Shown here one piece after another: positions 1,621 through 53,820 of a stretch of DNA of 64,000 bases. Position 1 is the stretch's first letter, and every line of letters begins with the position of its first letter. The notes under the pieces were generated by a model. It saw nothing but the letters and a program-made list of their open reading frames with translations. It did not search any database and was not told the origin of the DNA. This DNA is from a bacterium (GTDB lineage: Bacteria > Patescibacteriota > Doudnabacteria > UBA920 > VMFF01). Where the stretch lies: contig JAJZOG010000014.1 in assembly GCA_021811585.1 (NCBI GenBank), positions 2,577 through 66,576 on the forward strand. The letters run 5' to 3'. The translations under genes and the position numbers were made by a program.

Positions 1621-4600
1621 ATGAAAAATATTGGGAAAAAGCCACTAAAAAAATTCGTGCAAGCATCGGTGCAAGAAGTTGTGCAAGCAGCTGCGCAAGC
1701 AGCCGCGCAAGAATCCGTGCCGCCTGCCCAAGCAGCCATGCACACAACTTTGGCAAACTTGAATGATGCGCAAAAAAAGGCAGTGCTTTTTGGCAGCGGC
1801 CCTTTGCTTATTGTGGCAGGCGCGGGCACTGGCAAAACAACAGTGATAACGCGCAGGATAGCGCACCTGATTTCTTCGGGCGTAAAGTCCGATGAAATTT
1901 TGGCGCTCACTTTCACGGAAAAAGCCGCGGCTGAAATGGAAGAACGCGTGGACATACTTTTGCCTTACGGATATCACGATTTGTGGATTTCAACGTTCCA
2001 TGCCTTTTGCGAACGCATTTTAAAGCAGCACGCCTTGGATATAGGCGTTTCCAACGATTTCCAGCTTTTGGATTCTGTCCAGCAAAAAATTTTAGTGCGG
2101 AAGAATTTGGAAAAATTCGACTTGGATTATTACCGGCCCCTGGGCAATCCTTCGAAATTTATCAATGAGCTTGTGAAATATTTCGGTAAGCTTAAAGACG
2201 AAGAAATTTTTCCGGAAGAATATCTGGAATATGCGCAGAAGATCAAGTTGGATAAGGATAACGCCGAATTTGACGAGGGCGAAGCGCAAAGATTGAATGA
2301 ACTTGCAAATGCCTATCACGTTTATCAAAAATTGCTGCTCGACAACAATGCGCTGGATTTTGGCGACCTTATAAACTACGCGCTGAAGCTTTTCCGCAGG
2401 CGCAAAAAAATTCTTGAATTTTATCGCGCCAAATTCAAATATATTTTGGTAGACGAATTTCAGGACACAAATTTTGCGCAATACGAGCTGATTAAGCTGC
2501 TGGCCGCGCCGAAAAATAATCTGAATGTCGTCGGCGATGACGACCAGAGCATTTATAAATTCCGCGGAGCTTCCATTTCCAACATCATGCAGTTTAAAAA
2601 AGATTTTCCAAGCGCGGCCGAAATAACGCTTGCGGAAAATTATCGTTCCACCCAGGATATTTTGGACCTTGCCTACAAATTCATCCAGCAAAATAATCCC
2701 GAGCGCCTGGAAGCGCAGCTTGGCCTGAGCAAGAAATTAATTTCACCCCTCAAGGGAAAAGGGGAAATAGCCACGCTTTCGGCGCCAACGCTCGCGGATG
2801 AAACCGAGGCGGTTGCAAAGAAAATCGAACAAATCCATAAAGAAACAGGCGCGGATTGGAACGAGTTCGCCGTGCTCGTGCGCGCCAACGACCAGGCCGA
2901 CGCGTTTATTTCCAAATTTTCCGCCAAGGGCATCCCTTACACATTTTTCGCCAACAAAGGCCTGTACAAAAAGGCATTCATCGCCGACCTTATCGCTTAC
3001 ATGCGCCTGATTATTGATCACCATGACAGCGCGAATTTATACAAGGTTCTGTGCATGGAAATTTTTAGAATCAACCATGACGATTTGGCAACCATCCTCC
3101 ATTTTGCCCGCAAAAAAACCCTCTCGCTCTACGAGGCATTGCAGGTTTCCGAAACAATCGGGGGAATAAAAAAAGAAAGCGCGGAAACAATCCGCACTTT
3201 GCTCGGCATGCTTTCCGCGCACGCCTCCCTGGCGGCGCAAAAAAGTGCCACAGAGGTTTTTGTGAAGGCGGTCCACGATTTGCAAATAGGGAACCGGTTG
3301 AACGAAGATACTTTGGAAAATTCGCAGGATAGGAAATTGCTGGAACAATTTTACCGGCGCATGGAAAAGTTTACGGCAGAAAACGCGGATAAATCCCTGA
3401 AAGCATATCTGGATAATTTGGATTTGGAAGAAGACGCCGGGGAAGAGGGCAAAATTGATTTTGATCCGAACCAAGGACCGGAAAGCGTAAAAATTTTGAC
3501 AGTACACTCTTCCAAGGGCTTGGAATTTTCTTATGTTTTTATTGTTAATTTGGTTAAGCAGCGCTTTCCAAGCATGAATAGAAAAGACAGCATTGAAATT
3601 CCCGCGCCGTTGCTTAAGGAGGCCTTGCCCGAAGGGGACGTGCATCTCCAGGAAGAACGCCGCCTTTTTTACGTGGCCATGACTCGTGCCAAGCGCGGTT
3701 TGTATTTTACTTATGCTTTGGATTACGGCGGCGCGCGCACAAAACCGCCTTCGCAATTTTTAATCGAACTCGGGCTTGTCAAAGAGCCGCAAAAAAGCGT
3801 GGAAATTCTGCGCAAAGAGCAGAGCATCGCGAGGCATTACAATTACGATCCGCACGTTTTCATGCCCAACGCGTTTTCGTATACGCAAATTTCCGATTTC
3901 AAACGCTGCCCCATGTCTTTTAAATATAAATATCTGATACATATTCCGGTCGAGGGCAGCGCCAACCAATCTTTTGGAATTACAATTCATAAAACCTTGG
4001 AAGATTTTTTGAAGAGGTATAAGGCAGGCCTGGAAATGACCCAGCTGGAATTGTTCGGCACGGCGCGCGGCAAAAATGACGGCGCGGAGTCGGCTGCCCG
4101 CAAGCTTGCGAGTGAGGAGTTGGCTGCCCGCAAGCCCGTGAACGCGGAATCGGGCGATAAAGTGGCATCTAAAATTTCCGTTGAGGGCGAGCTGTTTAAA
4201 ATTTATGAGAAAAATTGGATTGATGAATGGTATGAAACCAAAAAGCAGAAAGAAGAATTCCGGGAGCGAGGCAAGAAAATTTTGAAGAGTTTTTATGAGG
4301 AATTTGTCCAAAATCCCGTGGCGCCGAAATACATTGAGGAGAAGTTTAATTTGAAATTGGGCGAATATTTTTTTAGCGGCAAAATCGACCGTGCCGATGC
4401 CGAGGCTCAAGGCCTGGATATTGTGGATTATAAAACCGGTGCGAAAAAAGAAGAAACCAAAGAAGGCCGCCGCCAGCTTATGATTTACCAGTGGGCGGCG
4501 CAGGAATTTTTGAAAGAAAAAGTGGTTGGCCTTAAGTATTGGTACTTGTTCGATAATGTTTTTTCCGAAAGTTTTGTGGCCAGCAGCGAAGATATTGCCG

Positions 4601-5339: not shown

Positions 5340-7262
5340 ATGGATGTCAACCAATTTGCTTCGGAAAAAAATTTGAAAGACGCGAGCAGCGGCAATATCG
5401 GCGCTGGCAATGGAAATATAGGCAATGGATCACAGCCGCCATCTCCGAAAATACCGGAAGAACTTGTTTTTAAAGTGATGCCCAAAGGATTTCCATTGCC
5501 AAAAATAAATTTTAAACAACCTGCGCCCGAGCCTGTGGCCATGGCCGCGCCTCATTCAACCGCGCCGGCGCCATCATCATCATTAGCATCGTCGCCATTG
5601 CCTCCGCCGCCTCCACCACCACTGCCGCCACAATCATCAGTGCCGGCGCCACAATCATCGCCGTCACCATTATCAGCGCCACGATCCTCGTCGCTACAAT
5701 CATCACCATCACAATCATTATATGGAATACCCCAAACTTTTGCGAAAAAAGCATCGCCGGTCCCACCTTTAAAATCCTTGCCAACCTCGATGCCGCCCCC
5801 AAGGGCAGCTCCAATTTCACAGGTTCAATTTTCACATGCTTCGCAGGCAGCGCAACCGCAAACTCCGCAGCTCGGGGCCGCTGGCGCACCAGCATCAAAT
5901 AATGCAGGGCAATCTCCTAATGCAGGACAATCTCCGAGTTCACTCGGCCTGCTTCAGAACGATTTTGATGCCGGCCTGTTTCAGAGCAGAATGTCCGGCA
6001 AGAAAATTTTATTTTTTGCCGGCATAGGAATTATTGTTTTGATTCTGCTGGGCAGCGGCATTTATGCCTACACGCGGCTCTCGAAAAAATCTCCGGCTCC
6101 AATTCCCGCGTCCCAAACAGCCGGTTCCGGGGAAATTCCGGGCAGCGGAAATTCACCGGGAGCAGGGTCGTCGCCAAATTCGAGTCAGACCCCGTCCGTA
6201 CAATCTCAAATACCATCTTCTTGGCTGCAAAAATATTTCGGTGAAACTGTCTGCGCAGACCAAAATGTCTGCGGCGATAATGCAGATCCTGATCACGACG
6301 GCCTCACAAATTTGGAAGAATACAAACTCGGCACTGATCCGAACAACCCCGACAGTTCTGGGAGCGGGATTGCGGATGGCGATAAGGTTCATGTTTTTAA
6401 TTTGGATCCGCTCTCGGATCACACCGCGGGCATTTTAAAATACACCGATGCAGGCGATTTAAAATATAAATATAATTCGCGTACGCACCAGCCATTCACA
6501 GCCGAAGATTTGGCGAAAATCGCAGCGAACATAAAACAATATGGGTTGCACGAACCCACAATTATGACCTTAGGACCCGATCTTGTAAATTTTTACACCA
6601 ACGGCGGCGGTGTGGCGGCGGGCGGGAATTCGAGCCCCACAGAAGAGCTTAACCGCGATACCCAGCGCGCGGACACCATCAAACAAATTAGCTTTGCTCT
6701 TATAAAATATCAACAAAGCAACGGCTCGTATCCGGATACAAATGATTTCACGACAATGATAGCAGATATCCAACCCATTCTTTCCGCAGGCCGAGCGATA
6801 AATACAACGGATCCGCTTAACACGCCCCCTTATATTTATGGCTACCAGTCCGTAAATAGCGGCGCGGATTTTAAGCTCTCTTATTTTTCCGAAACGCAGA
6901 ATCAGGAAATTGATATTGATGCCGCGGAAGCCCTGCAGGAGTACAGCAAGGATCAGGAAGACCAGCATGATGCCCAGCGGCAAAACGATTTGCAGCAAAT
7001 TGCAAATGCTTTGGAATTGTACTCGAATGACAATGCCAACCCAGCCGATCCTTCACAAAAGGTTTTTCCTTCAGAAACAAGCTGGAAAGAGGCGATTTCA
7101 AAATATCTTTCGCCAATCCCCGTTGACCCGAAAACAGACCAAGATTACACTTACACAGTTTCCCCGGACAACACACGTTTTGCGATTCAGGCGGTTTTAG
7201 AAGACCCTCCGACAGGGGACAAAGGTTATGTTTGTTCCCAGGATGGGTGTACGTATTACTAG
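5340..7262 (+). CDS. Proline-rich membrane-anchored protein with two pseudopilin-core-like repeats (hypothetical)
   Basis: It has a PPPPPPLPP tract, a single TM (ILFFAGIGIIVLILLGSGIYAYT), DPDHDGLTNLEEYKLGTDPNNPD (calcium-binding-like), and two segments resembling the GspG/pilin core (ADTIKQISFALIKYQQSNGSYP; DLQQIANALELYSNDNANP). Confidence 0.55.
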   Translation: MDVNQFASEKNLKDASSGNIGAGNGNIGNGSQPPSPKIPEELVFKVMPKGFPLPKINFKQPAPEPVAMAAPHSTAPAPSSSLASSPLPPPPPPPLPPQSSVPAPQSSPSPLSAPRSSSLQSSPSQSLYGIPQTFAKKASPVPPLKSLPTSMPPPRAAPISQVQFSHASQAAQPQTPQLGAAGAPASNNAGQSPNAGQSPSSLGLLQNDFDAGLFQSRMSGKKILFFAGIGIIVLILLGSGIYAYTRLSKKSPAPIPASQTAGSGEIPGSGNSPGAGSSPNSSQTPSVQSQIPSSWLQKYFGETVCADQNVCGDNADPDHDGLTNLEEYKLGTDPNNPDSSGSGIADGDKVHVFNLDPLSDHTAGILKYTDAGDLKYKYNSRTHQPFTAEDLAKIAANIKQYGLHEPTIMTLGPDLVNFYTNGGGVAAGGNSSPTEELNRDTQRADTIKQISFALIKYQQSNGSYPDTNDFTTMIADIQPILSAGRAINTTDPLNTPPYIYGYQSVNSGADFKLSYFSETQNQEIDIDAAEALQEYSKDQEDQHDAQRQNDLQQIANALELYSNDNANPADPSQKVFPSETSWKEAISKYLSPIPVDPKTDQDYTYTVSPDNTRFAIQAVLEDPPTGDKGYVCSQDGCTYY

Positions 7263-9146: not shown

Positions 9147-9224
9147 TTTTTGGCAGGGGAATCACCGCTGCTTCCGGCAGGGGAATCACCTTCGATTCCA
9201 GCAGAGGGATCACCTCTGATTCCG
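9147..9224 (+). repeat. 3 x 24-nt tandem repeat in the gyrB 5' leader
   Basis: ggcaggggaatcaccgctgcttcc / ggcaggggaatcaccttcgattcc / agcagagggatcacctctgattcc. Confidence 0.8.
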
Positions 9225-9293
9225 GCCATGGTTTCGCAGATTTTTTCATTTCATTTTTTCGTCTCATTTTCACCTAATTTTTCATCCAATTTA

Positions 9294-11450
9294 ATGCCCA
9301 AATCAATCCAAAAAAATTCAAAAGGAGATAATCGGAAAAAATCAGCCGGCAATGCGCCGGCATCCAAATCCTCTTACGGCGCGGAACAAATAACTGTGCT
9401 GGAAGGCCTTGATCCTGTCCGCAAACGTCCGGGAATGTATATTGGCTCCACGGGTGAAGCGGGGTTGCATCATTTAATTTGGGAAGTTGTGGATAACTCT
9501 GTTGATGAGGCCATGGCAGGATATGCCAGTAAAATTGAAGTGATTTTGCAGAAAGATGGCGGGTGCACTGTTATTGATAACGGCCGCGGCATTCCCGTTG
9601 ACATTCACAAGCAAACCAAAAAATCCGCTCTTGAAACGGTTATGACTGTTTTGCACGCTGGCGGAAAATTCGGCGGAGAAGCGTCCGGCTACAAGGTTTC
9701 GGGCGGCTTGCACGGAGTTGGCGTTAGCGTTGTAAATGCGCTTTCCACGGACATGATTACGCAAGTGCGCCGAGACGGAAAAATTTACGAACAGCATTTC
9801 AAGATAGGAAAGCCGCAGGGCAAAGTGAAGGAAATCGGCAAAATTGCTGCAAACGACCAGTACAAAAGCGGAACGAAACAGACGTTCTATCCGGACGTTT
9901 CGATTTTTTCAGCAACCGAATTTAAATTAAAAACAGTGCTCGAGCATTTGCGCTCGCAAGCGTATTTGACGCGCGGCTTGCATTTCAAAATCACGGACGA
10001 GCGCGACTCTCTGACATATCAATATTATTTTGAGGGCGGAATAATTTCGTACATCAAGCAAATCAATCGCAAAAAAAAGGCCAAGCACGATCCTATTTAC
10101 ATAAATAAAACGGTTGATGAAATTATGGTTGAAATTGCTGTGCAGTACACGGACGATTTCGATGAAACGGTTTTGGCATACGCGAATAATGAATATAATC
10201 CCGAAGGCGGCATGCACGTGACCGGTTTTCGCACCGCGCTGACCCGTTCCATAAACAATTACGCGGCCAAGAACGGATTTGTAAAAGAAAGCGATAAGCT
10301 TACCGGCGAAGATATGCGCGAAGGCCTGACTGCGATAATTTCCGTGAAGCTGCCGAACCCGCAGTTCGAAGGCCAGACAAAAGCAAAGCTCGGCAATCCC
10401 GAAGTGCGCACTGCAGTGGAATCGGTTGTCGGCGGGGCGCTTGAAATTTATTTTGAAGAACATCCCGGCGACGCTTCCAAAATAATGGAAAAGGTAATTT
10501 TGGCGTCAAAGGCGCGCCTTGCCGCGCGCGCCGCGCGCGAATCCGTTATCCGCAAGGGCATTTTGGAAGGTTTGGCTTTGCCCGGAAAATTGGCAGATTG
10601 TTCGGAAAAGGATCCGAGCGCGTGCGAGATATATATTGTGGAAGGCGATAGCGCCGGTGGCACGGCAAAACAGGGTCGCGACAGAAAATACCAGGCAATT
10701 TTGCCGCTGCGCGGAAAAATTTTGAACGTTGAGCGCGCGCGGCTGGATCGCATGCTTGGCAGCGAGCAAATCAAGAATTTGGTTATTGCCATGGGCGCCG
10801 GAGTGGGCGAGCAGTTTGACATTGAAAAGATGCGCTACCATCGCTTGATAATCATGACTGATGCCGATGTTGACGGCGCGCACATCCGCACTTTGCTTTT
10901 GACTTTGTTTTACAGATATTTCCCCGAAGTGATTCGTCGCGGCTATTTGTACATTGCCCAGCCGCCGCTTTTCCGCGTGCAAGTTGGCAAACAATTCCAA
11001 TACGCGTTTTCGGAAAGCGAGCGCGATGAAATTTTGGAGGATTTGCTTGCGGAGCGCGAAGCCGGGAAAAAATTAAAAGAAAAAGGCAAGGGCAAAAAAG
11101 GCGAAGCAGGGCGAAGCCCGGAAGGACCGAAGTTGGATGAAACCGGCGAAGCGGATAGCACTTCCTCACCGGCAGAGCAAGTTGGCGAAGATGGCGCTCC
11201 TGCCGGAACTGCGGTCGAAGAGGGCAAAAAAGGATACAGCGTTCAGCGCTACAAAGGCCTTGGCGAGATGAATGCCGAGCAGTTGTGGGAGACAACCATG
11301 AATCCTGAAAACCGCGTGATTGTCAGGGTACAAATTGATGATGCGGAAAAGGCTTCCGAGGTTTTTGAAACATTAATGGGCGACGAGGTTGCGCCGCGCA
11401 AGCGCTTCATCCAAACGCACGCGAAATCGGTGAAAAATCTTGATGTCTAG
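9294..11450 (+). CDS. gyrB: DNA gyrase subunit B
   Basis: VLEGLDPVRKRPGMYIGST, HHLIWEVVDNSVDEA, and Toprim EGDSAGG. The ATG at 9294 gives a normal N-terminus; the track's upstream TTG start runs through the leader repeats. A low-complexity insertion (KEKGKGKKGEAG...EEGKKG) precedes the C-terminal YKGLGEM. Confidence 0.9.
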   Translation: MPKSIQKNSKGDNRKKSAGNAPASKSSYGAEQITVLEGLDPVRKRPGMYIGSTGEAGLHHLIWEVVDNSVDEAMAGYASKIEVILQKDGGCTVIDNGRGIPVDIHKQTKKSALETVMTVLHAGGKFGGEASGYKVSGGLHGVGVSVVNALSTDMITQVRRDGKIYEQHFKIGKPQGKVKEIGKIAANDQYKSGTKQTFYPDVSIFSATEFKLKTVLEHLRSQAYLTRGLHFKITDERDSLTYQYYFEGGIISYIKQINRKKKAKHDPIYINKTVDEIMVEIAVQYTDDFDETVLAYANNEYNPEGGMHVTGFRTALTRSINNYAAKNGFVKESDKLTGEDMREGLTAIISVKLPNPQFEGQTKAKLGNPEVRTAVESVVGGALEIYFEEHPGDASKIMEKVILASKARLAARAARESVIRKGILEGLALPGKLADCSEKDPSACEIYIVEGDSAGGTAKQGRDRKYQAILPLRGKILNVERARLDRMLGSEQIKNLVIAMGAGVGEQFDIEKMRYHRLIIMTDADVDGAHIRTLLLTLFYRYFPEVIRRGYLYIAQPPLFRVQVGKQFQYAFSESERDEILEDLLAEREAGKKLKEKGKGKKGEAGRSPEGPKLDETGEADSTSSPAEQVGEDGAPAGTAVEEGKKGYSVQRYKGLGEMNAEQLWETTMNPENRVIVRVQIDDAEKASEVFETLMGDEVAPRKRFIQTHAKSVKNLDV

Positions 11451-13864: not shown

Positions 13865-14455
13865 ATGATTCTTTCCGACAAAGACATAAAAAAAGCGCTC
13901 CAAGAAGGCAGGATATCCGTGGACCCTCTTTTCCCGGATGCAATCCAGCCGGCTTCCGTGGACCTGCATCTTGGCAATGAGTTCTTAATTTTCAAAAGCA
14001 CTTCCAATGTTTGCATAGATGTAAAGGAACCGCTGGATAATTCCATGGAAAAAGTAATTATTGATAAGGACCGCCCGTTTATTTTGCATCCGGCTGAATT
14101 TGCGTTGGGATTAACTTATGAAACGGTTGGAGTGGCCGCCGATATGGTCGGGCGGCTTGAGGGCAAAAGCTCGCTTGGCAGAATCGGCTTGATTATCCAC
14201 GCGACAGCCGGCTATATTGACCCGGGCAATAAATTGAAAGTGACTTTGGAATTGCATAATATCGCAACCTTGCCGATCAAGCTTTATTACAAAATGCCCA
14301 TTGCACAAATGTCTTTCACGCCGCTTTCTTCGCCGGCGGAAACCCCGTACGGTGCGGAAAAACTGGGAAGCAAATATTACGGCGCGACAACTCCGCAGGC
14401 ATCCCAGTACTATAAAAATTTTATAAATAATAAATGGGAAGAATTCCGGGGCTGA
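13865..14455 (+). CDS. dcd: dCTP deaminase
   Basis: MILSDKDIKKAL...ISVDPLF...QPASVDLHLGNEF, typical of Dcd/dUTPase-superfamily enzymes. Confidence 0.85.
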   Translation: MILSDKDIKKALQEGRISVDPLFPDAIQPASVDLHLGNEFLIFKSTSNVCIDVKEPLDNSMEKVIIDKDRPFILHPAEFALGLTYETVGVAADMVGRLEGKSSLGRIGLIIHATAGYIDPGNKLKVTLELHNIATLPIKLYYKMPIAQMSFTPLSSPAETPYGAEKLGSKYYGATTPQASQYYKNFINNKWEEFRG

Positions 14456-14536
14456 TTTAAGCCGTGGAATTTTTTCTTTGGCGTCAAAAGCACAGCGCCA
14501 AAAACGCAGCGCCAAAAGCGCGGGGCAAAAACATCA

Positions 14537-14986
14537 ATGAAATCCGCCCAAGCAAAAATTACAAAATTATACTCCGGCGTCGAAACGCCGAAATACCACA
14601 GCGAAGAAGCCACCGGTTTTGATATTGCTTCCGCGGAGGACATTATTATAAAACCCGGCGAAACCCCGCTCATTAAAACCGGGCTTATTATTGAAGCGCC
14701 TGAAGGCCACTTTATACTTTTGGCGGCGCGCAGCAGTTTGCCCGTGAAAAAAGGGCTCATGCTTGCCAATGGCGTGGGAATTTTAGATAGGGATTTTTGC
14801 GGGCCAGACGATGAAATAAAAATTCAAGTTTATAATTTCACGAATCGCGACGTTGCGGTTTCAAAAGGCGAGCGCATTGCCCAGGGCATTTGCATCCCGG
14901 TAACCAGGGCGCAATTTCTTGAGGCGGAAAAAATAAAATCAGCTTCCCGCGGCAGCCACGGATCCACAGGGGGATACAATGCATAA
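14537..14986 (+). CDS. dut: dUTP diphosphatase (dUTPase)
   Basis: GFDIAS, ARSSL, GVGILDRDFCG, and C-terminal RGSHGSTGGY match dUTPase motifs 1-5. Confidence 0.9.
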   Translation: MKSAQAKITKLYSGVETPKYHSEEATGFDIASAEDIIIKPGETPLIKTGLIIEAPEGHFILLAARSSLPVKKGLMLANGVGILDRDFCGPDDEIKIQVYNFTNRDVAVSKGERIAQGICIPVTRAQFLEAEKIKSASRGSHGSTGGYNA

Positions 14987-15533
14987 GACGGCGGTTCTGG
15001 GCCTGGCCGGCGAATTCCTTTCCGGCAAATCCACTGCCGCGGCTTTTTACGTTCAAAAATTCGGCGCGAAAAAATTACGTTTTTCAACGGTCCTTGACGA
15101 TATTTTAGGGATTTTGGCTTTGCCCATAACGCGCGATAACGAGCAAAAGCTGGCTCTTTGCCTGCGCGAAGTTTTTGGCGAAGCCGTCATTGCGGAAACG
15201 CTTGTAAAATCCGTGGAATCATCCAAGCGCGGCGTCTTCATCGTGGACGGCTTGCGCAAATATGAAGAGATAACCGTGCTCAAGAGATTGCCGAATTTTA
15301 AGCTCATATATATAGAATCTTCTCTGCAGAAAAGGTTCGCGCGCTTGCAGGGCAGGGATGAAAAGCAGGGCGAAAAGATTTTAACTTTGGAGCAATTTGC
15401 CAAAAGCCACGAGCACGAATCGGACAAGGATGTCCCAAAGCTTAAACAGTATGCGAATTTTGTAATTGATAATGACGGTACGCAAGAAGCCTTGGAACAA
15501 AAATTGACGCAGGCATTAACAGAATCGTTATGA
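14979..15533 (+). CDS. P-loop nucleotide kinase, phage T4 Dnk-like deoxynucleoside-monophosphate kinase (paralog 1)
   Basis: P-loop GLAGEFLSGKST. C-terminal VIDNDGTQEALEQKL resembles T4 Dnk ...ITNDGSLEELFSKI. It overlaps the dut stop (ATGCATAA), suggesting translational coupling. Confidence 0.5.
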   Translation: MHKTAVLGLAGEFLSGKSTAAAFYVQKFGAKKLRFSTVLDDILGILALPITRDNEQKLALCLREVFGEAVIAETLVKSVESSKRGVFIVDGLRKYEEITVLKRLPNFKLIYIESSLQKRFARLQGRDEKQGEKILTLEQFAKSHEHESDKDVPKLKQYANFVIDNDGTQEALEQKLTQALTESL

Positions 15534-16075
15534 AAGTAATAGGAATTATCGGCCCGAAAGCTGCAGGCAAAGAAACAGTGGCAAAATATTTGCACCGCAA
15601 GCTGGGCGGTGCGGTTTACACGCATTCACAGATCTTGGACCAGGTTTTGGATGTTTTGAAAATTCCTAAAACGCGCGACAATGAAATTAAGCTGGTAAAT
15701 TTGAGAAAAATTTTCGGGCCCAGGGTTTTGCCGGATGCCTTGAATAAAAAAATCCGGGACGATGCGCCCAAATATGCCTTTGTAACCGGAATTAGGTTCA
15801 CCAGCGAATATGAAAATATCCGTTCCTTCGAAAAAAATAAAATAATTTATGTTGACGCCCCAATGGAAGCCAGGTACCAAAGGCACCTTGAACGCAAGGA
15901 GAAAGCGGACGACAGCAGCATCAGCTTTGTGAAATTTTCGGAAATGGAAAATGCGGAAACCGAGATTTATATCAGGGAACTTGGCGTCCAGGCGGATTTT
16001 CGGATCGACAACAGCGGTTTGCTTGAGGATTTATATAAAAAGATAGATAATATAATTGAAGAGATATGCCGATAA
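15530..16075 (+). CDS. P-loop nucleotide kinase, T4 Dnk-like (paralog 2)
   Basis: P-loop GIIGPKAAGKET; C-terminal RIDNSGLLEDLYKKI. Same length and architecture as paralog 1. ATGA overlap with the upstream gene. Confidence 0.5.
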   Translation: MKVIGIIGPKAAGKETVAKYLHRKLGGAVYTHSQILDQVLDVLKIPKTRDNEIKLVNLRKIFGPRVLPDALNKKIRDDAPKYAFVTGIRFTSEYENIRSFEKNKIIYVDAPMEARYQRHLERKEKADDSSISFVKFSEMENAETEIYIRELGVQADFRIDNSGLLEDLYKKIDNIIEEICR

Positions 16076-16815
16076 TAAAAAAACCGAAAAATAAAAAAGC
16101 GAAAAACAGGGGAGCGTTTATTGTCATGGACGGCACTGACGGCTCTGGGAAAAGAACGCAAACCGAACTTTTAATGCAGACCTTGCGGTTTGAGGGGTAT
16201 GATTGCGAGGCCATAAGCTTTCCGCAATACGGGCAAAAATCAGCGGGCCTTGTTGAGGAATATTTGAATGGAAAATACGGCAAAACAGGCCCGTATGTGA
16301 GTTCTATTTTTTATGCGGCAGACCGTTTTGATGCCAGCTTTAAAATCCGCAAATGGCTGGAAGACGGCAAGATCGTGATTTCCGACAGATATGTGACGGC
16401 AAATGCCGGACATCAGGGCGGAAAAATTTCAAGCCAGGCGGAGCGCATAAAATATTTCAAATGGCTTGATAATCTTGAGTACAATATTTTTCAGATCCCC
16501 AAGCCCGATTTGAACATAATTCTGCACATGCCCGCAAAAATGGCGCAAAAGCTGATTGGCTTAAAGCCGAAGGAAACCAGGACGTATATTACGGGCAAAT
16601 CAAAAAAAGATTTGCACGAGGGGGATTTAAAGCATTTAAAAAACGCGGAAAAGGTCTTTATGGAAATCGCGCAGCTTTTTCCGAATACAAAAATGGTTAC
16701 TTGCGTGGAAGAAGGCAAACTTTTAACGCCGCAGCAGATTCATAATAAAATTTGGAACCTGGTGCGCAGAATTGCGCTTGCCAGAAACGAAAAAGCCGTT
16801 GTAGTAAGCCGCTAG
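16066..16815 (+). CDS. tmk: Thymidylate kinase
   Basis: FIVMDGTDGSGKRTQ P-loop, DRY-like lid region. It overlaps the upstream kinase by 10 nt; an alternative start at Met20 is possible. Confidence 0.85.
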   Translation: MPIIKKPKNKKAKNRGAFIVMDGTDGSGKRTQTELLMQTLRFEGYDCEAISFPQYGQKSAGLVEEYLNGKYGKTGPYVSSIFYAADRFDASFKIRKWLEDGKIVISDRYVTANAGHQGGKISSQAERIKYFKWLDNLEYNIFQIPKPDLNIILHMPAKMAQKLIGLKPKETRTYITGKSKKDLHEGDLKHLKNAEKVFMEIAQLFPNTKMVTCVEEGKLLTPQQIHNKIWNLVRRIALARNEKAVVVSR

Positions 16816-16818
16816 AAC

Positions 16819-16920
16819 CCTCTATCAACTGCCAACTATTAACTACCAACTATTAACTACCAACTACTAACTACTATCTATCAACCTATTAACTACCAAC
16901 TACTATCTACCAACTACCAC
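16819..16920. repeat. Heptamer tandem repeat (CTACCAA / CTATCAA)n, copy 2 (inverse orientation)
   Basis: ...ctatcaactgccaactattaactaccaactattaactaccaactactaactactatctatcaacc... directly upstream of the thyX ATG. Confidence 0.8.
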
Positions 16921-16922
16921 CT

Positions 16923-18641
16923 ATGTTTACAGACGAAGAAAAAAATATTTTACAAAAATATGTAACCTCGGCCGAAGACAATGTTTTCGCGATCAAGGGT
17001 TTAAGTGGAATCGTCGGCGCGGTTTATGCGAGATATTCGCGCGCAAAAGGCGGTTTCCGCGAAACTTTGCTTAAGGAATTTGTCCAAGAGGGAAATATTG
17101 ATCCAAAGCACGCGGACGAATTGATTGCGCGCGTTTTAGTGGCTTACGGCGACGATAGCGTCGGCGAGCTTGAGGGGGCGCATGTTTCCTTTGAGAAGAT
17201 TTCAATTCTTTCGACAAAGGAAATTGAAGACCACCGCATCGGCGGATCGCCGATAGAGCAATCCACGCGCTATGTTTTTTACGATCAAAAAGACGACAGC
17301 GGCAGTTGGTTGTATTACAGAGGCGCGGAGCTTGCCGAAAATCCTAAATTCGGAAAGCAATACTTGCAAACCATGGATTTTATTTTCCAAACATACGCGG
17401 ATTTGGTTGAGCCCATGAGGAATTATTTTATGGCTTTAAAGCCCTTGGAATCGGCTGAATATGATATTAACGGCGACGGCGCCAAGGAAAAATGGTCGGA
17501 TCTTACAAATGAAAAAGACCAGAAAGCTTTTAAAATCACTTATAATGCGGATTTAAGAACAAAGGCCTGCGATACGCTGCGCGCGCTTTTGCCTCTTTCA
17601 ACTTTCACGAATGTCGGCATGTTTGGCAACGGCAGATTTTTTCAGACAGTAATTACGCATTTGCTGAGCCAGGACATGCCTGAATTCAAAGGCATAGGCG
17701 AAAAAGCGCTTGCGGCGCTTTCGGAAGTGATTCCGCAATATGTGCGCCGCGCGAAGAGGAACGAATATGATGCGGGCATAAGGCAGGCAATGTATGGGCT
17801 TGCAGGCGAGGTTTTCGGGGATGAAATTGGAAAGCCGCCCGCCTTGCCGCATTACGAACTTTTGGACAAAGGTGAGCGCTTTATAGTTCGTAAATTTGAT
17901 GAAATCCGCAAATCCAAGCCGCAGGCAGGCGAGGCCGATATTCTAACCGAGGCAATGCAGTATGCCGATGATTTGCGCGAGATGGCTAACATTATTTATC
18001 CTTTTTCGGGGCTTTCCATGAACGCATTGATGGATAAAATTTCGAAAATGAATGATGCGCAAAAAGAAAAAATCATCAAAACATATATTGGCGAACGAAA
18101 AACCAGGCGCGACCGTCCGGGGCGCGGATTGGAAAGCGGCTATGAATATAATTTTGATTTGGTCACGAACTGGGGCGTCTATAAGGATTTGATGCGCCAC
18201 AGAATAAATAGCCAACAGCGGCAATTATTTACGACCAAAATCGGTTTTTACATGCCAGAGGAATTGGTTAATGCCGGGCTTGAGGAAAAAGCGCTCGAAT
18301 GCGTGAGCAAAGCAGGCGCTTTGTACGATTTAATCGCTGAGCAGGATCGCGTTTTGGCGCAGTACGCTGTTTTGCACGGGCATTATGTGCGCTGGAGCAT
18401 GTCCTTTAATGATCGCGAAGCCATTCATATGCTGGAACTGCGTTCTACTCCGCAAGGCCACCCTAATTACCGCCTGGCGGCGCAAGCCATGCATAAATTA
18501 ATTGAGCAACGAAGCAAGTGGCGCGCGGAAATAATGAGTTTCGTTGACCATAATGATTATTATTGGTCGCGGGGAGATTCCGAGGCAAAGCAAAGGGTTA
18601 AAGAAAAAGAGTTGGACGAGCAATTTAAGCCCAAGCCCTAA
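16923..18641 (+). CDS. thyX: FAD-dependent thymidylate synthase ThyX, apparent tandem-duplicated (pseudo-dimeric) form
   Basis: Two ThyX signature-like motifs are present: DHRIGGSPIEQSTRY in the N-terminal half and MRHRINSQQRQ in the C-terminal half. At 572 aa it is about twice the canonical ThyX length. It sits in the dTMP pathway operon. Confidence 0.6.
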   Translation: MFTDEEKNILQKYVTSAEDNVFAIKGLSGIVGAVYARYSRAKGGFRETLLKEFVQEGNIDPKHADELIARVLVAYGDDSVGELEGAHVSFEKISILSTKEIEDHRIGGSPIEQSTRYVFYDQKDDSGSWLYYRGAELAENPKFGKQYLQTMDFIFQTYADLVEPMRNYFMALKPLESAEYDINGDGAKEKWSDLTNEKDQKAFKITYNADLRTKACDTLRALLPLSTFTNVGMFGNGRFFQTVITHLLSQDMPEFKGIGEKALAALSEVIPQYVRRAKRNEYDAGIRQAMYGLAGEVFGDEIGKPPALPHYELLDKGERFIVRKFDEIRKSKPQAGEADILTEAMQYADDLREMANIIYPFSGLSMNALMDKISKMNDAQKEKIIKTYIGERKTRRDRPGRGLESGYEYNFDLVTNWGVYKDLMRHRINSQQRQLFTTKIGFYMPEELVNAGLEEKALECVSKAGALYDLIAEQDRVLAQYAVLHGHYVRWSMSFNDREAIHMLELRSTPQGHPNYRLAAQAMHKLIEQRSKWRAEIMSFVDHNDYYWSRGDSEAKQRVKEKELDEQFKPKP

Positions 18642-18665: not shown

Positions 18666-19773
18666 ATGCACGAACTGCTAAAAAAGATAAAAAATTTAAT
18701 GATAGACGTTTCCGGCCTAAAGGAGCGTCTTTGAGCTTGCTGCAAAGAAAGAAAAATTAGCGCGCCTTGAGCGCGAAATGCAGGCGCCGGATTTCTGGAG
18801 CGATCAAAACGCGGCGCGGCAAAAATCCGAGGAGCATAATAATTTAAAGTCAATCGTGGATTTTTGGGATGGGCTTCAAAAGGAAATTGAAGAGCTTTTT
18901 GAAATCGCATCCCAAGCGGAAAAAGGCGCCAAAACCGGAGCTGTGTCCGGTTCTGATTTGGATTTTTTGGAGAATGCTTACAAGGCGCTTGAAAAAAAAT
19001 ATCTGGACGCGAGAATCCAGGCGTTTTTTTCCGGAAAATACGACGACCATAGCGCAATTTTGTCAGTACACGCCGGCGCCGGTGGAAGCGATGCCCAGGA
19101 CTGGGCGGAGATGCTCCTGCGCATGTACACGCGTTTTGCGGAAAGAAAAAATTTCAAAACAGAAATACTTGAAATTTCACGCGGCGCCGAAGCGGGGATA
19201 AAGAGCGCGGTAATGGAGATCCGCGGCCCAAATGCTTACGGCTATCTGAAAAGCGAAGCAGGCGTGCACCGCCTTGTCCGGCTTTCTGAATTTAACCCTG
19301 CGCATACGCGCGAAACGTCTTTTGCTCTTGTGGAGGTTTTGCCGATTTTGCATCAAGAAGAAGAGCTCAAACTTAATCCCCAGGATTTGAAAATTGAAAC
19401 ATCCACCGCATCGGGCCATGGCGGCCAAAGCGTGAATACTACGTATTCCGCGGTTCGCATCACGCACATACCCACAGGCATAAAGGTCTCAATACAAAAC
19501 GAGCGCAGCCAGCACCAGAACCGCGAGAAAGCCATGGAAATTTTGCACGCCAAATTACTCGCGCTTGAAGAGATAAGAAAACAAAAAGAAAAACAGGAAA
19601 TTCGCGGGGAATTCCACAGCCCGGAATGGGGCAACCAGATTCGCAGTTATGTTTTGCATCCGTACAAAATGGTAAAAGATCACCGCTCGGGATTCGAGAC
19701 AAGCGATCCGGAAAACGTTTTGAACGGCAATCTCGACGATTTTATTGAAAATTATTTGGAAAACAGAATATAA
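18666..19773 (+). CDS. prfB: Peptide chain release factor 2 with programmed +1 ribosomal frameshift (join 18666..18731, 18733..19773)
   Basis: ORF1 is MHELLKKIKNLMIDVSGLKERL, ending at the in-frame UGA inside AAGGAG-CGU-CUU-UGA-G. The +1 frame continues ELAAKKEKLARLEREMQAPDFW... and contains GGQ and the RF2-type C-terminus QIRSYVLHPYKMVKDHRSG. Confidence 0.9.
18720..18737 (+). promoter_or_regulatory. RF2 autoregulatory +1 frameshift site (internal SD AAGGAG, spacer CGU, slippery CUU UGA G)
   Basis: Its geometry matches E. coli prfB (AGGGGG UAU CUU UGA C). Confidence 0.85.
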
Positions 19774-22112: not shown

Positions 22113-23852
22113 ATGGCAAAGAAAAAGTCAAAAAAAAAGGAACCAAGGCCACAGAAAGCAACAAAATTTATTTTTATTTCCGGAGGCGTGATTTCGGGAA
22201 TAGGCAAGGGGATTACATCTGCCTCCATTTCCGCGATTTTAAAATCAAAGGGTTTTACGGTTGCGCCTGTTAAAATTGATATGTATTTGAATCAAGATGC
22301 AGGAACCATACGCCCGCAGGAGCACGGCGAGGTTTTTGTTACGGACGATGGCATTGAAACCGATCAGGATCTCGGCCATTATGAGCGTTTTACCGGTGAA
22401 AATTTAAGCCGCGCCAATTACATCACCACCGGCCAAATTTACGCCGAGGTTTTGCGCAAAGAACGCGCTTTCGAATATGACGGAGAAGATGTTGAAGCCA
22501 TTCCCCACGTAACCAATGAAATCCTCAGGCGCATAACGCTGGCAGGCAGAAAAGCGGATATTGCCATTGTGGAACTTGGCGGCACTGTTGGCGAATACCA
22601 GAATGCGATTTTTTTTGAGGCCAGCAGAATTCTAAAATTGCGGCATCCCGGAGATGTTTTGCATGTGCACGTTGCTTATTTGCCCATACCGTCGTACCTT
22701 GGCGAAATGAAATCAAAGCCGGTTCAGCAATCAGTGCGCATGCTCAATTCCATGGGCATTGAGCCGGATATTATTGTCGGACGTTCGGAAATTCCCATGG
22801 ACGACAAACGCAAGGAAAGAGTCGCGTTATTTTGCAACGTGGATAAAAAAGCCGTGCTTTCCAATCCCGATGTGCGCAGCATTTATGAAGTGCCTGTAAT
22901 TTTAAATCAGCAGAGTGCCGGGGAAATTATTTTGGAAAAATTGGGCTTGGAAAAGCGCAATAAAGATATGCACGAATGGAAAATCTTACTGCGCCAAATA
23001 AGCAATCCCAAACATGAAATCAAAATCGCGGTGGTTGGAAAATATTTCGGCACCGGAAATTTTGAGCTTGCCGATTCTTATGTCTCGGTTATTGAGGCGA
23101 TTAAGCATGCCGGCTGGGCATGTAAAGCAAATATAAAATTGTCTTGGGTGGACAGCTTGAAAGTAGAGGAGTCGGGCGCGAAAAAAGTTTTGAGCGGATA
23201 TGAGGGGATTATTGTGCCCGGCGGTTTTGGCAGCCGCGGCACCGAAGGCATGATAGCGGCAATCCGCTACGCGCGCGAAAATAACATTCCATATCTCGGG
23301 CTTTGCTATGGCATGCAAATGGCGGCCATAGAATTTGCCCGCAATGTTTTGAAAATGCGCGGCGCCAATACCACTGAAATTGATTTGAAGGCCAAATTCC
23401 CGATTGTCCACATTATGCCTGACCAGGAGAAAAAACTTCTCAGCCGCGATTATGGCGCTTCCATGCGCTTGGGCGCCTGGCAATGCGTTTTGAAAAAGGG
23501 GAGTTTGGCGGAAAAACTATACGGCACGAGGCGCATTTCGGAAAGGCACAGGCACCGCTATGAATTTAATAATAAATTTCGCGCTGTTTTTGAAAAAGCC
23601 GGGTTGGTGTTTTCAGGCGCTTCTCCTGACGGCAAATTGGCGGAGGTTTTGGAATTGCCGTCTCATCCGTTTTTCATGGGTTCGCAATTTCACCCCGAAT
23701 TTAAATCCCGCCCGTTTGCCCCGCATCCGCTGTTCAAAGGTTTTATAGGAGCGATCTTAAAATTGCGCAAGGAAAAAGAAAAACAAATGCAAACACAAGA
23801 GCAAAAAGCGGCTGAGGCGGAAACGATAAAGGTGGCAGCCCCGGCCAAATAA
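22113..23852 (+). CDS. pyrG: CTP synthase
   Basis: KFIFISGGVISGIGKGITSASI plus the C-terminal glutamine amidotransferase domain (GLCYGMQ, HRYEFN). Confidence 0.9.
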   Translation: MAKKKSKKKEPRPQKATKFIFISGGVISGIGKGITSASISAILKSKGFTVAPVKIDMYLNQDAGTIRPQEHGEVFVTDDGIETDQDLGHYERFTGENLSRANYITTGQIYAEVLRKERAFEYDGEDVEAIPHVTNEILRRITLAGRKADIAIVELGGTVGEYQNAIFFEASRILKLRHPGDVLHVHVAYLPIPSYLGEMKSKPVQQSVRMLNSMGIEPDIIVGRSEIPMDDKRKERVALFCNVDKKAVLSNPDVRSIYEVPVILNQQSAGEIILEKLGLEKRNKDMHEWKILLRQISNPKHEIKIAVVGKYFGTGNFELADSYVSVIEAIKHAGWACKANIKLSWVDSLKVEESGAKKVLSGYEGIIVPGGFGSRGTEGMIAAIRYARENNIPYLGLCYGMQMAAIEFARNVLKMRGANTTEIDLKAKFPIVHIMPDQEKKLLSRDYGASMRLGAWQCVLKKGSLAEKLYGTRRISERHRHRYEFNNKFRAVFEKAGLVFSGASPDGKLAEVLELPSHPFFMGSQFHPEFKSRPFAPHPLFKGFIGAILKLRKEKEKQMQTQEQKAAEAETIKVAAPAK

Positions 23853-51858: not shown

Positions 51859-53820
51859 TTATTCCGAAGTTATTTTGTGCGATTCCCCGGGTTTTAAAAT
51901 TTTTTTATGTTGCTGGCCGTGATTATTCCTGTCCTGAGCGCTGTTTCCCGTGCTCAAACTTTTTGCCAGGGTATTTGCCAAACCGGCGGCCAGGTTTTGT
52001 GATTTTTGCCGGTTCATTTTAGCAGCTGTTTCCCAAATGGCATTATCTTTTTTTGCCATTGGCCTGGCGGGGTGGTTCGCAAAATGGTTTCCAGAATGGT
52101 TATTTGAATGCATGTTCCTGGTTTGGCCGGTATTATTTTTGCCGTAGGAATTGTGCGGCTGGGGGCTGCGCGCATTATGTGTTTGGAAATTATTCGGCCG
52201 GGGATTGTATTGGGAATTATATTGCCGGGATGCATGCGGTTCGATGTTTTCGTATTTTGTTTTTTGCGCTTCCTTTGGTTCCCGGCCAGGTTCCTTTGTT
52301 TCCTTGTCTGCTTCTGTATTTGTTTTTTTGCCTGCTGTATTCGTTTCCCAGTCTGGTGCTGCGTTCGATTGTTGTGCCGCCATATTTTGCGCCGCACTGC
52401 TGGAGACCGTTTTTTCCATTTCAGCCGGCGCTTGTGGCGCAACCGCTGTTTCCACTTCTTCTTCGCCCTCCTGGCGCGCGCCGCTGGCAATTACAGCGGC
52501 TTGTTCGTGATATTCCTGCCCCATCCAGCGCAATATTTTATCTTCAACTTCAGCAACGGGATTTGCATATCTTTCCCGTGAGATGCGAATTACTTTGTCC
52601 GTATTGGCTATTTTTCTGTGGGTTTCCGGCGCCAAGGTTGTGGCCGTAAAAGGGTCGGAAGCCACGCCGTTAATCATTAATTTTAGAATGATGTGATGTT
52701 TGGGCAGATTCACCAGATCGTTTTCCGTAAATTGCGGCGCAAATTCTTTTTCTAAAAATTCCGAATCAGCCGCGCCCACGCGAAAAGTGACGATTGTCCC
52801 GACGTTGCCGAAAACCGCGTCGCGCACTTTTGTGCTTCTGCCGTCGCTGCCTGTGAGCTGGCCGATATATTGATGCCCGATTGTGAGGTTCAGGCGGTAT
52901 TTGCGCGCCTCGGAAAGTATTGTGGCAAATGATTCCGTGGCAAAATTTTGGAATTCGTCGACGTACAAAAAGAAATCGTGGCGTTCCTGCTCGCTGATAT
53001 CGACGCGCGAAAGCGCGGCCAGCTGGAGCTTGGTGATAAGCATGGCGCCGAGCAAATCGGAATTGTCCTCGCCGATGCGCCCTTTGGCAAGATTCATTAA
53101 GATTATTTTTTTGTTGTCCATGAGCGAACGCAAATCAATGGTGCTTTTCGGCTGGCCGACAATGTTGCGTATAATTCCAGATGAAAGGAATTGCCCGACT
53201 TTATTTTGGATTGGCGCAATGGATTCCATGCGGTATTTTTCGTTCCAATTCGCGAATTCATCCACCCAGAAGGATTTGACCATCGGGTCTTTGATATTGT
53301 CGACAATCCGTTTGCGGTATTTTTTGTCTATCAGCATTCGGGAAATTCCGAGCAGGGTGTTGCCGGGAGAATCCAAAAGCGCGAGTATGGCGTTATTTAA
53401 GATATATTCCATGCGCGCGGACCATAAATTAGCCCAAATTTTTGTGAACACGCCCATAAGCCCCGAAGCAACCAGATGCTTGTAATTCGGGTCAACCGCT
53501 TCCAAAATATTAAAAGCAATCGGAAATTCCCTGTCAGCGGGATTGAAATAAACCACGTCGTTCACGCGGCTTGAAGGCACGTAATCCAAAATTTTCTCAA
53601 CTGAATCCCCGTGCGGATCCACAAACGCCAAGCCGTTGCCGTTCGCTATGTCTTGGATAATCATGTTTTCCATGAGCGTTGTTTTGCCCATGCCGGTTTT
53701 TCCGATGATATACATGTGCCGGCGCCGGTCTTCGCGCTTTATGCCAAACGGCACTTCCTTGTGGCGGAAGTTTGTCTTGGCGAAAATTGTGATGTCGTTG
53801 TTATCCTGTTCTGCGTCCAT
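51859..53820 (-). CDS. TraD/TrwB/VirD4-type coupling-protein-like P-loop ATPase lacking N-terminal TM segments, with long disordered Q/N/K-rich C-terminal tail
   Basis: Walker A IIGKTGMGKTT; LAFVDPHGDS, YFNPADRE and FNILEA blocks, in spacing, match F-TraD/TrwB. Walker B-like FFLYVDEFQNF. Residues ~430-653 are low complexity. Confidence 0.6.
   Translation of the reverse strand: MDAEQDNNDITIFAKTNFRHKEVPFGIKREDRRRHMYIIGKTGMGKTTLMENMIIQDIANGNGLAFVDPHGDSVEKILDYVPSSRVNDVVYFNPADREFPIAFNILEAVDPNYKHLVASGLMGVFTKIWANLWSARMEYILNNAILALLDSPGNTLLGISRMLIDKKYRKRIVDNIKDPMVKSFWVDEFANWNEKYRMESIAPIQNKVGQFLSSGIIRNIVGQPKSTIDLRSLMDNKKIILMNLAKGRIGEDNSDLLGAMLITKLQLAALSRVDISEQERHDFFLYVDEFQNFATESFATILSEARKYRLNLTIGHQYIGQLTGSDGRSTKVRDAVFGNVGTIVTFRVGAADSEFLEKEFAPQFTENDLVNLPKHHIILKLMINGVASDPFTATTLAPETHRKIANTDKVIRISRERYANPVAEVEDKILRWMGQEYHEQAAVIASGARQEGEEEVETAVAPQAPAEMEKTVSSSAAQNMAAQQSNAAPDWETNTAGKKTNTEADKETKEPGREPKEAQKTKYENIEPHASRQYNSQYNPRPNNFQTHNARSPQPHNSYGKNNTGQTRNMHSNNHSGNHFANHPARPMAKKDNAIWETAAKMNRQKSQNLAAGLANTLAKSLSTGNSAQDRNNHGQQHKKILKPGESHKITSE

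Follow-up and report, generated by a model that had tools for sequence, protein, structure and literature searches.

What task falls to two adjacent P-loop kinases in a gene cluster that already encodes a canonical dTMP kinase? The question is posed by a 64,000-nt stretch of a Doudnabacteria genome (Patescibacteriota; contig JAJZOG010000014.1 of assembly GCA_021811585.1), here called the window, in which dcd, dut, two kinase genes that we term kinA and kinB, tmk and thyX follow one another. An original prediction, made from the letters alone, had viewed this group as a complete dTTP-synthesis operon with duplicated, possibly phage-derived kinases akin to Dnk, the deoxynucleoside monophosphate (dNMP) kinase of phage T4. 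We lean, with modest confidence, to the view that the kinA and kinB products are active kinases of (deoxy)nucleoside monophosphates, (d)NMPs, that operate in pyrimidine deoxynucleoside triphosphate (dNTP) synthesis, most plausibly on dCMP, with kinA and kinB standing for two paralogue types of old date. Fold, homology and conserved gene context point this way.

Fold, relatives and types of the two kinases

The two proteins are paralogues, as had been proposed, with 31% identity across 177 residues (E 2e-27). KinA presents the P-loop GEFLSGKST, a DGLR motif and three arginines (R119, R122 and R126) in the LID; the corresponding features of kinB are GPKAAGKET, TGIRF and R115, R118 and R122. The GxxxxGK[ST] consensus that had been assigned to both P-loops applies to kinA but not to kinB, in which glutamate follows the lysine. 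In this respect, kinB is comparable to T4 Dnk, whose P-loop (GVKRSGKDT) likewise has an acidic residue after the lysine; with this analogous GKDT, T4 Dnk is a proven active enzyme. At the other end of the proteins, the C-terminal blocks of kinA and kinB (FVIDNDGTQEALEQKL and FRIDNSGLLEDLYKKI, respectively) do resemble the C-terminus of T4 Dnk (LVITNDGSLEELFSKI), as the original prediction had noted, but the resemblance is not specific: comparable blocks are carried equally by the dephospho-CoA kinase (CoaE) 2IF2 (ADYVIDNSGSIEETYKQV) and by the archaeal protein SSO1041 (ADYIITNDSNYEEFKRR), and the feature therefore marks a wider group rather than Dnk.

AlphaFold2 yielded confident models of both proteins (predicted local distance difference test, pLDDT, 90.4 for kinB and 90.3 for kinA; predicted template modelling score, pTM, 0.85). 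For each of them, the top Foldseek match in the PDB is the complex of SSO1041 with AMP (3LW7), at template modelling (TM) scores of 0.80 for kinB and 0.76 for kinA. Next for kinB come UMP/CMP kinase (1UKE; TM 0.73) and then CoaE, and for kinA the adenylate kinases AK1/AK5 and UMP/CMP kinase, with CoaE and shikimate kinase lower down. The hallmarks of the nucleoside monophosphate (NMP) kinase fold are present, namely, the Walker A lysine, an NMP-binding subdomain, the 'GxR' arginine after strand 3 and an arginine-bearing LID. The residues concerned (K14/K17, R49/R52, R59/R63, R89/R93 and R115-R118-R122/R119-R122-R126 in kinB/kinA) are conserved in at least 90% of the 148-165 family members compared. 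Across 165 representatives, conservation extends to the P-loop Gly/Lys, S33, R49, N51, R59, F62-G63, G87-R89, R115, R118 and R122, and further to F136, E145, A155 and N161; both window kinases retain the P-loop Gly/Lys, the six arginines, N51, G87-R89, F136 and N161. As far as can be judged from sequence, the lysine together with the six arginines marks an active NMP kinase.

No specific family of Pfam or NCBIfam is matched by either kinase above its gathering score. The generic models AAA_17 and AAA_18 are matched, the sole score above cut-off being that of kinB with AAA_17 (28.2 bits versus 27), and there are full-length matches to NF006226 (PRK08356, an archaeal 'hypothetical protein') of 65.6 bits for kinA and 62.8 bits for kinB, well under its cut-off of 189. 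SSO1041 from Sulfolobus solfataricus (UPF0200, 'AdkA-like'; 3LW7/3H0K) likewise falls below that cut-off, at just 69.2 bits, and it is the sole clear full-length relative by sequence in the PDB: single-sequence phmmer searches find it with E 8e-8 and 2e-6, a profile of 27 family sequences with E 7.6e-17, and one of 148 sequences with E 7.7e-27 (97.5 bits). Far behind in the search with the 148-sequence profile stand CoaE (2e-8), adenylate kinase 1 (AK1; 1e-7, over its full length) and T4 Dnk (1DEK; 2.5e-6). SSO1041 is further like the window kinases in its length of ~180 aa, a DGVR motif, the LID arginines and a C-terminal ADYIITND block; it differs in being archaeal, only ~22% identical and in having no known thymidylate-cluster context. 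From N-terminal similarity to the TK1334 primer sequence, SSO1041 probably belongs to arCOG01045, an orphan group that is nearly universal in archaea and also occurs as two paralogues per genome (PMC6650551). Our literature searches for a functional characterization of UPF0200, SSO1041, arCOG01045 or the dNMP kinases of the candidate phyla radiation (CPR) found none.

The better-known kinases of this fold are more distant. AK1/AK5 and UMP/CMP kinase (2C95, 2BWJ and 1UKE) share the architecture of core, NMP-binding subdomain and LID (TM 0.6-0.73) and a similar set of arginines; these short-LID enzymes are, however, only ~15-20% identical to the window kinases, the Pfam models ADK and Cytidylate_kin are not reached, and the NMP-site motifs (TRxNE, LRxxFG) differ. 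CoaE (2IF2 and 2GRJ) resembles the window kinases in its P-loop, in a C-terminal 'ADxVIDNxGxxEEL' block and in fold (TM 0.55-0.68), but its gene context is different. In kinA, there is additionally a match to the kinase domain of the PADLOC dCTPase model (E 1.8e-11 over residues 5-176) and to NF041025 (E 7.9e-8, 31.6 bits); the latter has a cut-off of 400 bits, which kinA does not reach. The match covers the kinase domain alone, and kinA has no deaminase domain. No PADLOC match was found for kinB.

Kinship with phage dNMP kinases, as the original prediction had proposed, is real but remote. Both window kinases match phrog_139, 'deoxynucleoside monophosphate kinase' (kinA along its full length with E 3.4e-13 and 50.7 bits; kinB with E 3e-18 and 67.3 bits), as does every one of 148 diverse family members (best E 8.8e-30), although proteins that belong to phrog_139 score far higher (222.6 bits for T4 Dnk and 189.7 bits for Blue_005 of the Bacillus phage Deep Blue). 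Pfam DNMK (PF21448) is the top specific family, matched by 78 of the 148 members at E<=1e-3 (best 4e-14); for CoaE (PF01121), the figure is 50 of 148 (best 2e-8). The DNMK gathering score of 27.1 is not reached by kinB, whose 24.8 bits derive from residues 2-38 (the P-loop) only, and kinA has no DNMK match. T4 Dnk itself is matched at the P-loop (residues 1-40) and at the C-terminal block 'DLVITNDGSLEELFSKIKNTLK', to which a deeper hidden Markov model adds one short core segment; hhalign pairs the family with T4 Dnk over 41 columns (72% probability), and an alignment along all 241 aa of the phage protein, including its large middle insertion, was not attained. The equivalent comparison with Blue_005 spans 166 columns (99% probability, E 6e-18), and the Blue_005 gene sits between those for thymidylate synthase (thyA) and dihydrofolate reductase (DHFR), a setting like that of the cellular genes. 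Among viral structure models, the best TM scores are 0.77-0.83, and 0.67-0.77 is reached by many proteins of giant viruses and phages that bear the name dNMP kinase; the first 50 Foldseek PDB matches of either window kinase do not include 1DEK. Thus, SSO1041 outranks Dnk by structure and by profile, but an affinity to Dnk does exist, because matches to phrog_139 and DNMK occur across the family.

Scans of IMG/VR with kinA and with a B-type alignment found no close relative, and the GenBank phages contributed just 10 Bacillus phage records, at identities of no more than 33%; a recent phage origin is therefore unsupported. The window kinases would seem to be distant cellular relatives of the phage dNMP kinases, and not members of the T4 type. 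An exhaustive profile search of representatives of 50%-identity clusters returned 11,026 proteins at E<=1e-3, of which 3,508 reach <=1e-10 and 404 reach <=1e-30; their lengths almost always fall within 175-195 aa, and named members occur in Candidatus Doudna-, Magasanik-, Buchanan- and Komeilibacteria and in entries labelled 'Patescibacteria group bacterium'. A family of ~11,000 representatives, which sits in core-gene synteny across Patescibacteria, is at odds with the suggestions that the kinases are phage-derived and that they are unusual for a cell. None of the members is labelled as a nucleotide kinase: they appear as 'AAA family ATPase', 'hypothetical protein' or, in Joint Genome Institute (JGI) entries, 'dephospho-CoA kinase'.

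Within the family, kinA belongs to the main, or A, type and kinB to a B type, which has threonine for the aspartate of 'DGxR' and usually glutamate or aspartate after the P-loop lysine. Neighbour joining places the 15 A-type members in one monophyletic clade and the 27 B-type members in another, and the two clades are not sisters; most other members are equidistant from the two, and the tree is star-like. In three loci outside the window lineage (L028, L030 and L031), a B-like copy, recognizable by its GIRF motif, is accompanied by a main-type copy to which it is 30-35% identical. Since these pairs diverge as much as kinA and kinB do, the duplication would be old, and the recurrence of the two types side by side in other lineages favours a division of function between them.

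Thymidylate genes around the kinases

The six head-to-tail genes of the original prediction are borne out in position, strand and identity (Table 1). Dcd scores 189.3 bits with TIGR02274 (cut-off 92.8) and 140.6 bits with PF22769; Dut, 117.7 bits with TIGR00576 (cut-off 102.55) and 88.9 bits with PF00692; Tmk, 67.5 bits with PF02223 (Thymidylate_kin; cut-off 27), together with sub-cut-off matches to NF005923 (105.7 bits) and TIGR00041 (62.8 bits); and ThyX, 117 bits with PF02511 (Thy1; cut-off 24.8), split over two stretches, and just 36 bits with TIGR02170. The junctions, read directly, overlap by 8 nt (dut/kinA, with GGGGGA upstream of the kinA ATG), 4 nt (kinA/kinB, ATGA) and 10 nt (kinB/tmk), in agreement with the 4-10 nt that had been claimed. 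The last of these values presumes that tmk starts at the ATG at 16066, as opposed to 16126 in the public gene call; we prefer the former because the latter would sacrifice the first β-strand, 'RGAFIV', ahead of the DGxDGSGK P-loop, as well as a Lys-rich N-terminal extension that is also found in the L005 orthologue. Gaps of 81 and 107 nt separate dcd from dut and tmk from thyX, respectively, and dcd starts 20 nt after rplA. A consensus scan found no terminator-like site on the forward strand between the cluster genes, which is weak evidence, and neither the Rfam nor the tRNA scan gave a match within the cluster or close to it. The encoded enzymes fit the route dCTP to dUTP to dUMP to dTMP to dTDP; 'complete dTTP-synthesis operon' nevertheless overstates the case, since the cluster stops at dTDP, with no nucleoside diphosphate (NDP) kinase encoded within it. 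Nowhere else in the window is there another N-terminal P-loop kinase.

Table 1. Coordinates of the cluster genes and of further features of the window
Feature	Coordinates	Strand	Product	Reaction
dcd	13865-14455	+	dCTP deaminase, 196 aa	dCTP to dUTP
dut	14537-14986	+	dUTP diphosphatase, 149 aa	dUTP to dUMP
kinA	14979-15533	+	P-loop NMP-kinase-fold protein, 184 aa, main/A type of the Patescibacteria family	
kinB	15530-16075	+	kinA-paralogous kinase, 181 aa, B type	
tmk	16066-16815	+	dTMP kinase, 249 aa counted from ATG 16066	
thyX	16923-18641	+	long-form flavin-dependent thymidylate synthase, 572 aa	dUMP to dTMP
dcd-dut spacer	14456-14536		81 nt	
gyrB	9150-11450	+		
prfB	18666-19773	+	RF2	
pyrG	22113-23852	+	CTP synthase	
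coupling protein gene	51859-53820	-	TrwB/VirD4-like coupling protein	

Scans for related loci were made with narrow alignments (A4 for genome contigs and A7 for metagenome contigs). Each of the eight related loci fetched has the kinA-kinB-tmk triad, with kinB identities down to 45%, so that the arrangement is not due to chance. Five loci have the design of the window, dcd-dut-kinase-kinase-tmk, and in each thyX comes next, save in L004, whose contig stops behind tmk. Neither dut nor thyX is present in L005, L006 and L009: the space between dcd and kinA is taken by folA-thyA and one further gene, all on the opposite strand, and tmk is followed by a gene for an HD-domain hydrolase and one further gene, possibly of the Nudix type (the swapped genes occupy 2205-4391 on the minus strand and 6257-7260 on the plus strand of L005, and the layout is the same in L006 and L009). 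The short contig L007 covers just folA-thyA and the triad. The thymidylate synthase system is thus swapped wholesale around an unchanged kinA-kinB-tmk core. The spacing of kinA and kinB within that core is close throughout: an overlap of 4 nt in the window and in L005, and of 8 nt in L003, and a gap of 1 nt in L002.

A second design, with a single kinase, occurs in other Patescibacteria: dCMP deaminase-kinase-thyA-DHFR-dut-tmk-gatB, the genes of which often abut or overlap. The metagenome scan returned 80 loci, 79 of them with a family kinase, and a gene was counted as a neighbour when it lay no more than 400 nt from that kinase. On this basis, a zinc dCMP deaminase, usually directly upstream, accompanies the kinase in 32 of the 79 loci, dut in 14, thyA and thyX in seven each, and tmk in five. 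At least one thymidylate-pathway gene is found in 34 of the 36 loci with at least 41% identity to the query subfamily; many of the remaining metagenome contigs are just 1-2 kb long. As to copy number, L028, L030 and L031 each combine a zinc dCMP deaminase with two to three kinase copies, L031 additionally having dcd.

Two natural fusions involve the kinase family. P0095 (L012, 102-1232) joins the kinase to a dUTPase in a protein of 376 aa and is known from a 1.3-kb contig only; it is not a read-through of the window arrangement, because its gene order is opposite. P0154 (L013, 5001-6188) is a tandem kinase-kinase fusion of 395 aa, and its gene adjoins one for a PyrH-like amino-acid kinase. The idea that P0154 unites an A with a B type was rejected, as its two halves are mutual nearest neighbours and hence arose by an independent duplication; it therefore gives no evidence for an A-B heterodimer.

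Predicted activity and its alternatives

The architecture predicted for the two kinases combines a core like that of adenylate kinase with a helical subdomain that binds the NMP and with a short, Arg-rich LID, and the family would be the counterpart in bacteria of the archaeal UPF0200 orphans. ATP would be bound at the P-loop, and the phosphate of the acceptor (d)NMP would be clamped by R49 and R59 of the helical subdomain, and by R89, while the LID arginines would close on the transferred phosphate. The kinases would use ATP to convert dCMP to dCDP, and possibly phosphorylate other dNMPs outside the range of Tmk; an NDP kinase encoded elsewhere would then generate dCTP, after which Dcd would produce dUTP, Dut dUMP, ThyX dTMP and Tmk dTDP. 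dCMP is the most economical candidate substrate because dTMP is covered by Tmk, and dCMP and dCTP enter the encoded route; where the kinase gene lies beside that of a dCMP deaminase, a dCMP kinase would control the branch point between dCTP and dTTP. A broader range of dNMPs, shared out between the paralogues, is equally compatible with the evidence. We favour divided substrate specificities for kinA and kinB because their two types recur together in other lineages; a heteromer of the two is possible, and the tight coupling of their genes is compatible with one. The A and B types could even constitute a dedicated Patescibacteria deoxynucleotide-phosphorylating system, with divided dNMP specificities or as an obligate heterodimer, coupled both physically and functionally to dCMP/dCTP deamination in the manner of the T4 dNTP-synthetase complex, and by homology the same activity would explain the archaeal arCOG01045 kinases (TK1334, TK2192 and SSO1041); this extension is tentative and, on balance, unlikely.

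Several points weigh against the assignment of kinA and kinB as (d)NMP kinases acting on dCMP. The nearest characterized relatives of the family are remote, and the best structural match, SSO1041, is an orphan protein that was crystallized with AMP, a ribonucleotide. The gene context speaks for a function in the metabolism of pyrimidine deoxynucleotides, but it does not tell a dCMP kinase from an NDP kinase, a deoxynucleoside kinase, a kinase of ribo-CMP/UMP or one with a broad dNMP range, and a role in phosphorylating dTMP would be redundant because a canonical tmk is already present. KinB departs from the usual pattern in having TGIR, without the aspartate of 'DGxR', and a glutamate following the P-loop lysine. 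The neighbour-joining tree carries no support values, and co-transcription of the six genes, plausible as it is, is argued just from their spacing and from the lack of an intergenic terminator-like site.

The most serious competitor, although we consider it unlikely, is that one or both proteins are housekeeping (d)CMP/UMP kinases that replace Cmk, like the eukaryotic UMP-CMP kinase, and act mainly on ribonucleotides, their clustering then reflecting general pyrimidine metabolism. The rank of 1UKE directly after SSO1041 among the fold matches of kinB, the AMP in the SSO1041 crystal and the PyrH-like neighbour of P0154 all speak for such a role, as does pyrG, which follows the cluster on the same strand at a distance of 3.4 kb, after prfB-ftsE-ftsX-rplI, an order that is repeated in L002 and L003. 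The recurrent neighbours, however, are specific to deoxynucleotides (dCMP/dCTP deaminase, dUTPase, thymidylate synthase, DHFR and Tmk), the significant specific family matches are to phage deoxynucleotide kinases, and the Cmk models, matched by kinB only, are far from satisfied (16.8 bits versus a cut-off of 26 for PF02224, Cytidylate_kin; 15.7 for TIGR00017; 18.6 for TIGR02173). A division of labour in sequence, with phosphorylation of dCMP by one paralogue and of dNDPs (dCDP to dCTP and dTDP to dTTP) by the other, would make the dTTP route self-contained without Ndk, and the steps from NDP to NTP are indeed the only ones absent from the cluster; moreover, adenylate kinase has an NDP kinase side activity. 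Nevertheless, both paralogues retain the same NMP kinase arginine set, and we know of no homologue that acts as an NDP kinase. The specific support for this model was a pattern among the first 12 loci, where dCTP deaminase went with two kinases and dCMP deaminase with one; the correlation failed on wider sampling, broken by L028, L030 and L031 with their dCMP deaminase and multiple kinases, and with it goes the only such support, leaving the model very unlikely. The 'dephospho-CoA kinase' names that JGI has given to many members find some echo in the weak matches to PF01121 and to the CoaE structures noted above, but all CoaE cut-offs are missed by the window kinases (PF01121, 14.8 and 16.7 bits versus 27; TIGR00152, 20 versus 65.55), and a CoA biosynthesis context was never seen in the metagenome loci surveyed. 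Since, moreover, the archaeal CoaE homologues TK1334 and TK2192 of Thermococcus (arCOG01045) were assayed by Shimosaka et al. and lack dephospho-CoA kinase activity (PMC6650551), CoaE function is scarcely credible here.

That the two genes are recent acquisitions from phage, encoding broad-specificity dNMP kinases of the T4 Dnk type, is highly improbable. The phrog_139 and DNMK matches, the GK[DE]T P-loop that kinB and T4 Dnk have in common, the similar C-terminal blocks and the thyA-DHFR setting of the phage homologue would be in keeping with such an origin, and there is a precedent in Pseudomonas putida, in which a phage-derived, T4-Dnk-like dNMP kinase borne on a genomic island replaces a disrupted tmk and provides thymidylate kinase activity (PMC10653934). 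That case likewise involves a cellular genome that relies on a Dnk-like kinase for dNTP synthesis; in the window, by contrast, the canonical tmk is intact and adjacent. Furthermore, in addition to the missed DNMK gathering score, the 41 columns aligned with T4 Dnk, the position of 1DEK outside the top 50 fold matches and the lack of close IMG/VR relatives, the window proteins have 181-184 aa as opposed to 241 aa and are without the T4 insertion, and they are chromosomal members of a very large family that is syntenic with ribosomal and other core genes across Patescibacteria. A non-catalytic role, as nucleotide-binding partners that sense deoxycytidine nucleotides or present them to the deaminase or dUTPase, or that scaffold a dNTP-synthetase complex, appears a poor prospect. 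It draws on the very frequent position of the kinase directly downstream of dCMP deaminase, at times with overlap, on the kinase-dUTPase fusion P0095 and on the anti-phage dCTP deaminase, in which a kinase-like domain, essential for defence, is fused to a zinc cytosine deaminase, and in which mutation of the nucleotide-binding motif abolishes defence (bioRxiv 10.1101/2021.04.26.441389). The N-terminal kinase-like domain of this defence protein is the one matched by kinA, and its fusion to the deaminase is mirrored by the adjacency of the CPR genes; the window kinases, however, stand alone and lie in a core-gene neighbourhood, not in a defence island. Against a purely regulatory role, the P-loop lysine and the six arginines are conserved family-wide, and the window lineage keeps both kinases even though it has no zinc deaminase.

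Further features of the window and wider meaning

The long form of ThyX, which exceeds the 191 positions of the Pfam Thy1 model more than twofold, is kept in L002, L003 and L008 (566-572 aa). No PDB sequence match to it was found at E<=0.01, and an internal duplication is unsupported, as BLASTP of its two halves shows no detectable similarity. The dcd-dut spacer contains repeated GCGCCAAAA-like units (ggcgtcaaaagcacagcgccaaaaacgcagcgccaaaagcgcgg) and has no Rfam match. Downstream of the cluster, prfB displays a classical programmed +1 frameshift: ORF0 (open reading frame 0) runs from its ATG to CTT (18729-31), which is followed by TGA (18732-34), with a Shine-Dalgarno-like AAGGAG at 18720-25, and reading in the +1 frame, from GAG at 18733, continues into the listed ORF 18778-19773. 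At the slippery site, the sequence is CTT TGA G, in place of the usual CTT TGA C. Because the frameshift joins ORF0 to the listed ORF, the true prfB begins 25 nt after thyX. GyrB has a charged low-complexity insert (KKLKEKGKGKKGEAGRSPEGPKLDETGEADSTSSPAEQVGEDGAPAGTAVEEGKKG) directly ahead of the QRYKGLGEM motif, and its ORF has a long, TTG-started upstream extension that gene callers do not use. The coupling protein (PF10412, DUF87) is encoded within a run of minus-strand genes, possibly as a component of a Patescibacteria system for type IV secretion or of a conjugation-like kind.

The kinase family is common in Patescibacteria and not exceptional, and its presence in the window does not amount to evidence of an unusual phage capture. 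To our knowledge, these organisms cannot make nucleotides de novo, and their dNTP pools are rebuilt from scavenged material; a conserved kinase in thymidylate clusters is therefore likely to supply a missing salvage step. The 'dephospho-CoA kinase' label on family members is apparently wrong, and the genomic context provides a concrete functional hypothesis for this mis-annotated family. The same hypothesis extends to the archaeal relatives, whose function was left open once dephospho-CoA kinase activity had been ruled out (PMC6650551), and it may help to explain what the kinase-like domain, essential for defence, does in the anti-phage dCTP deaminase.

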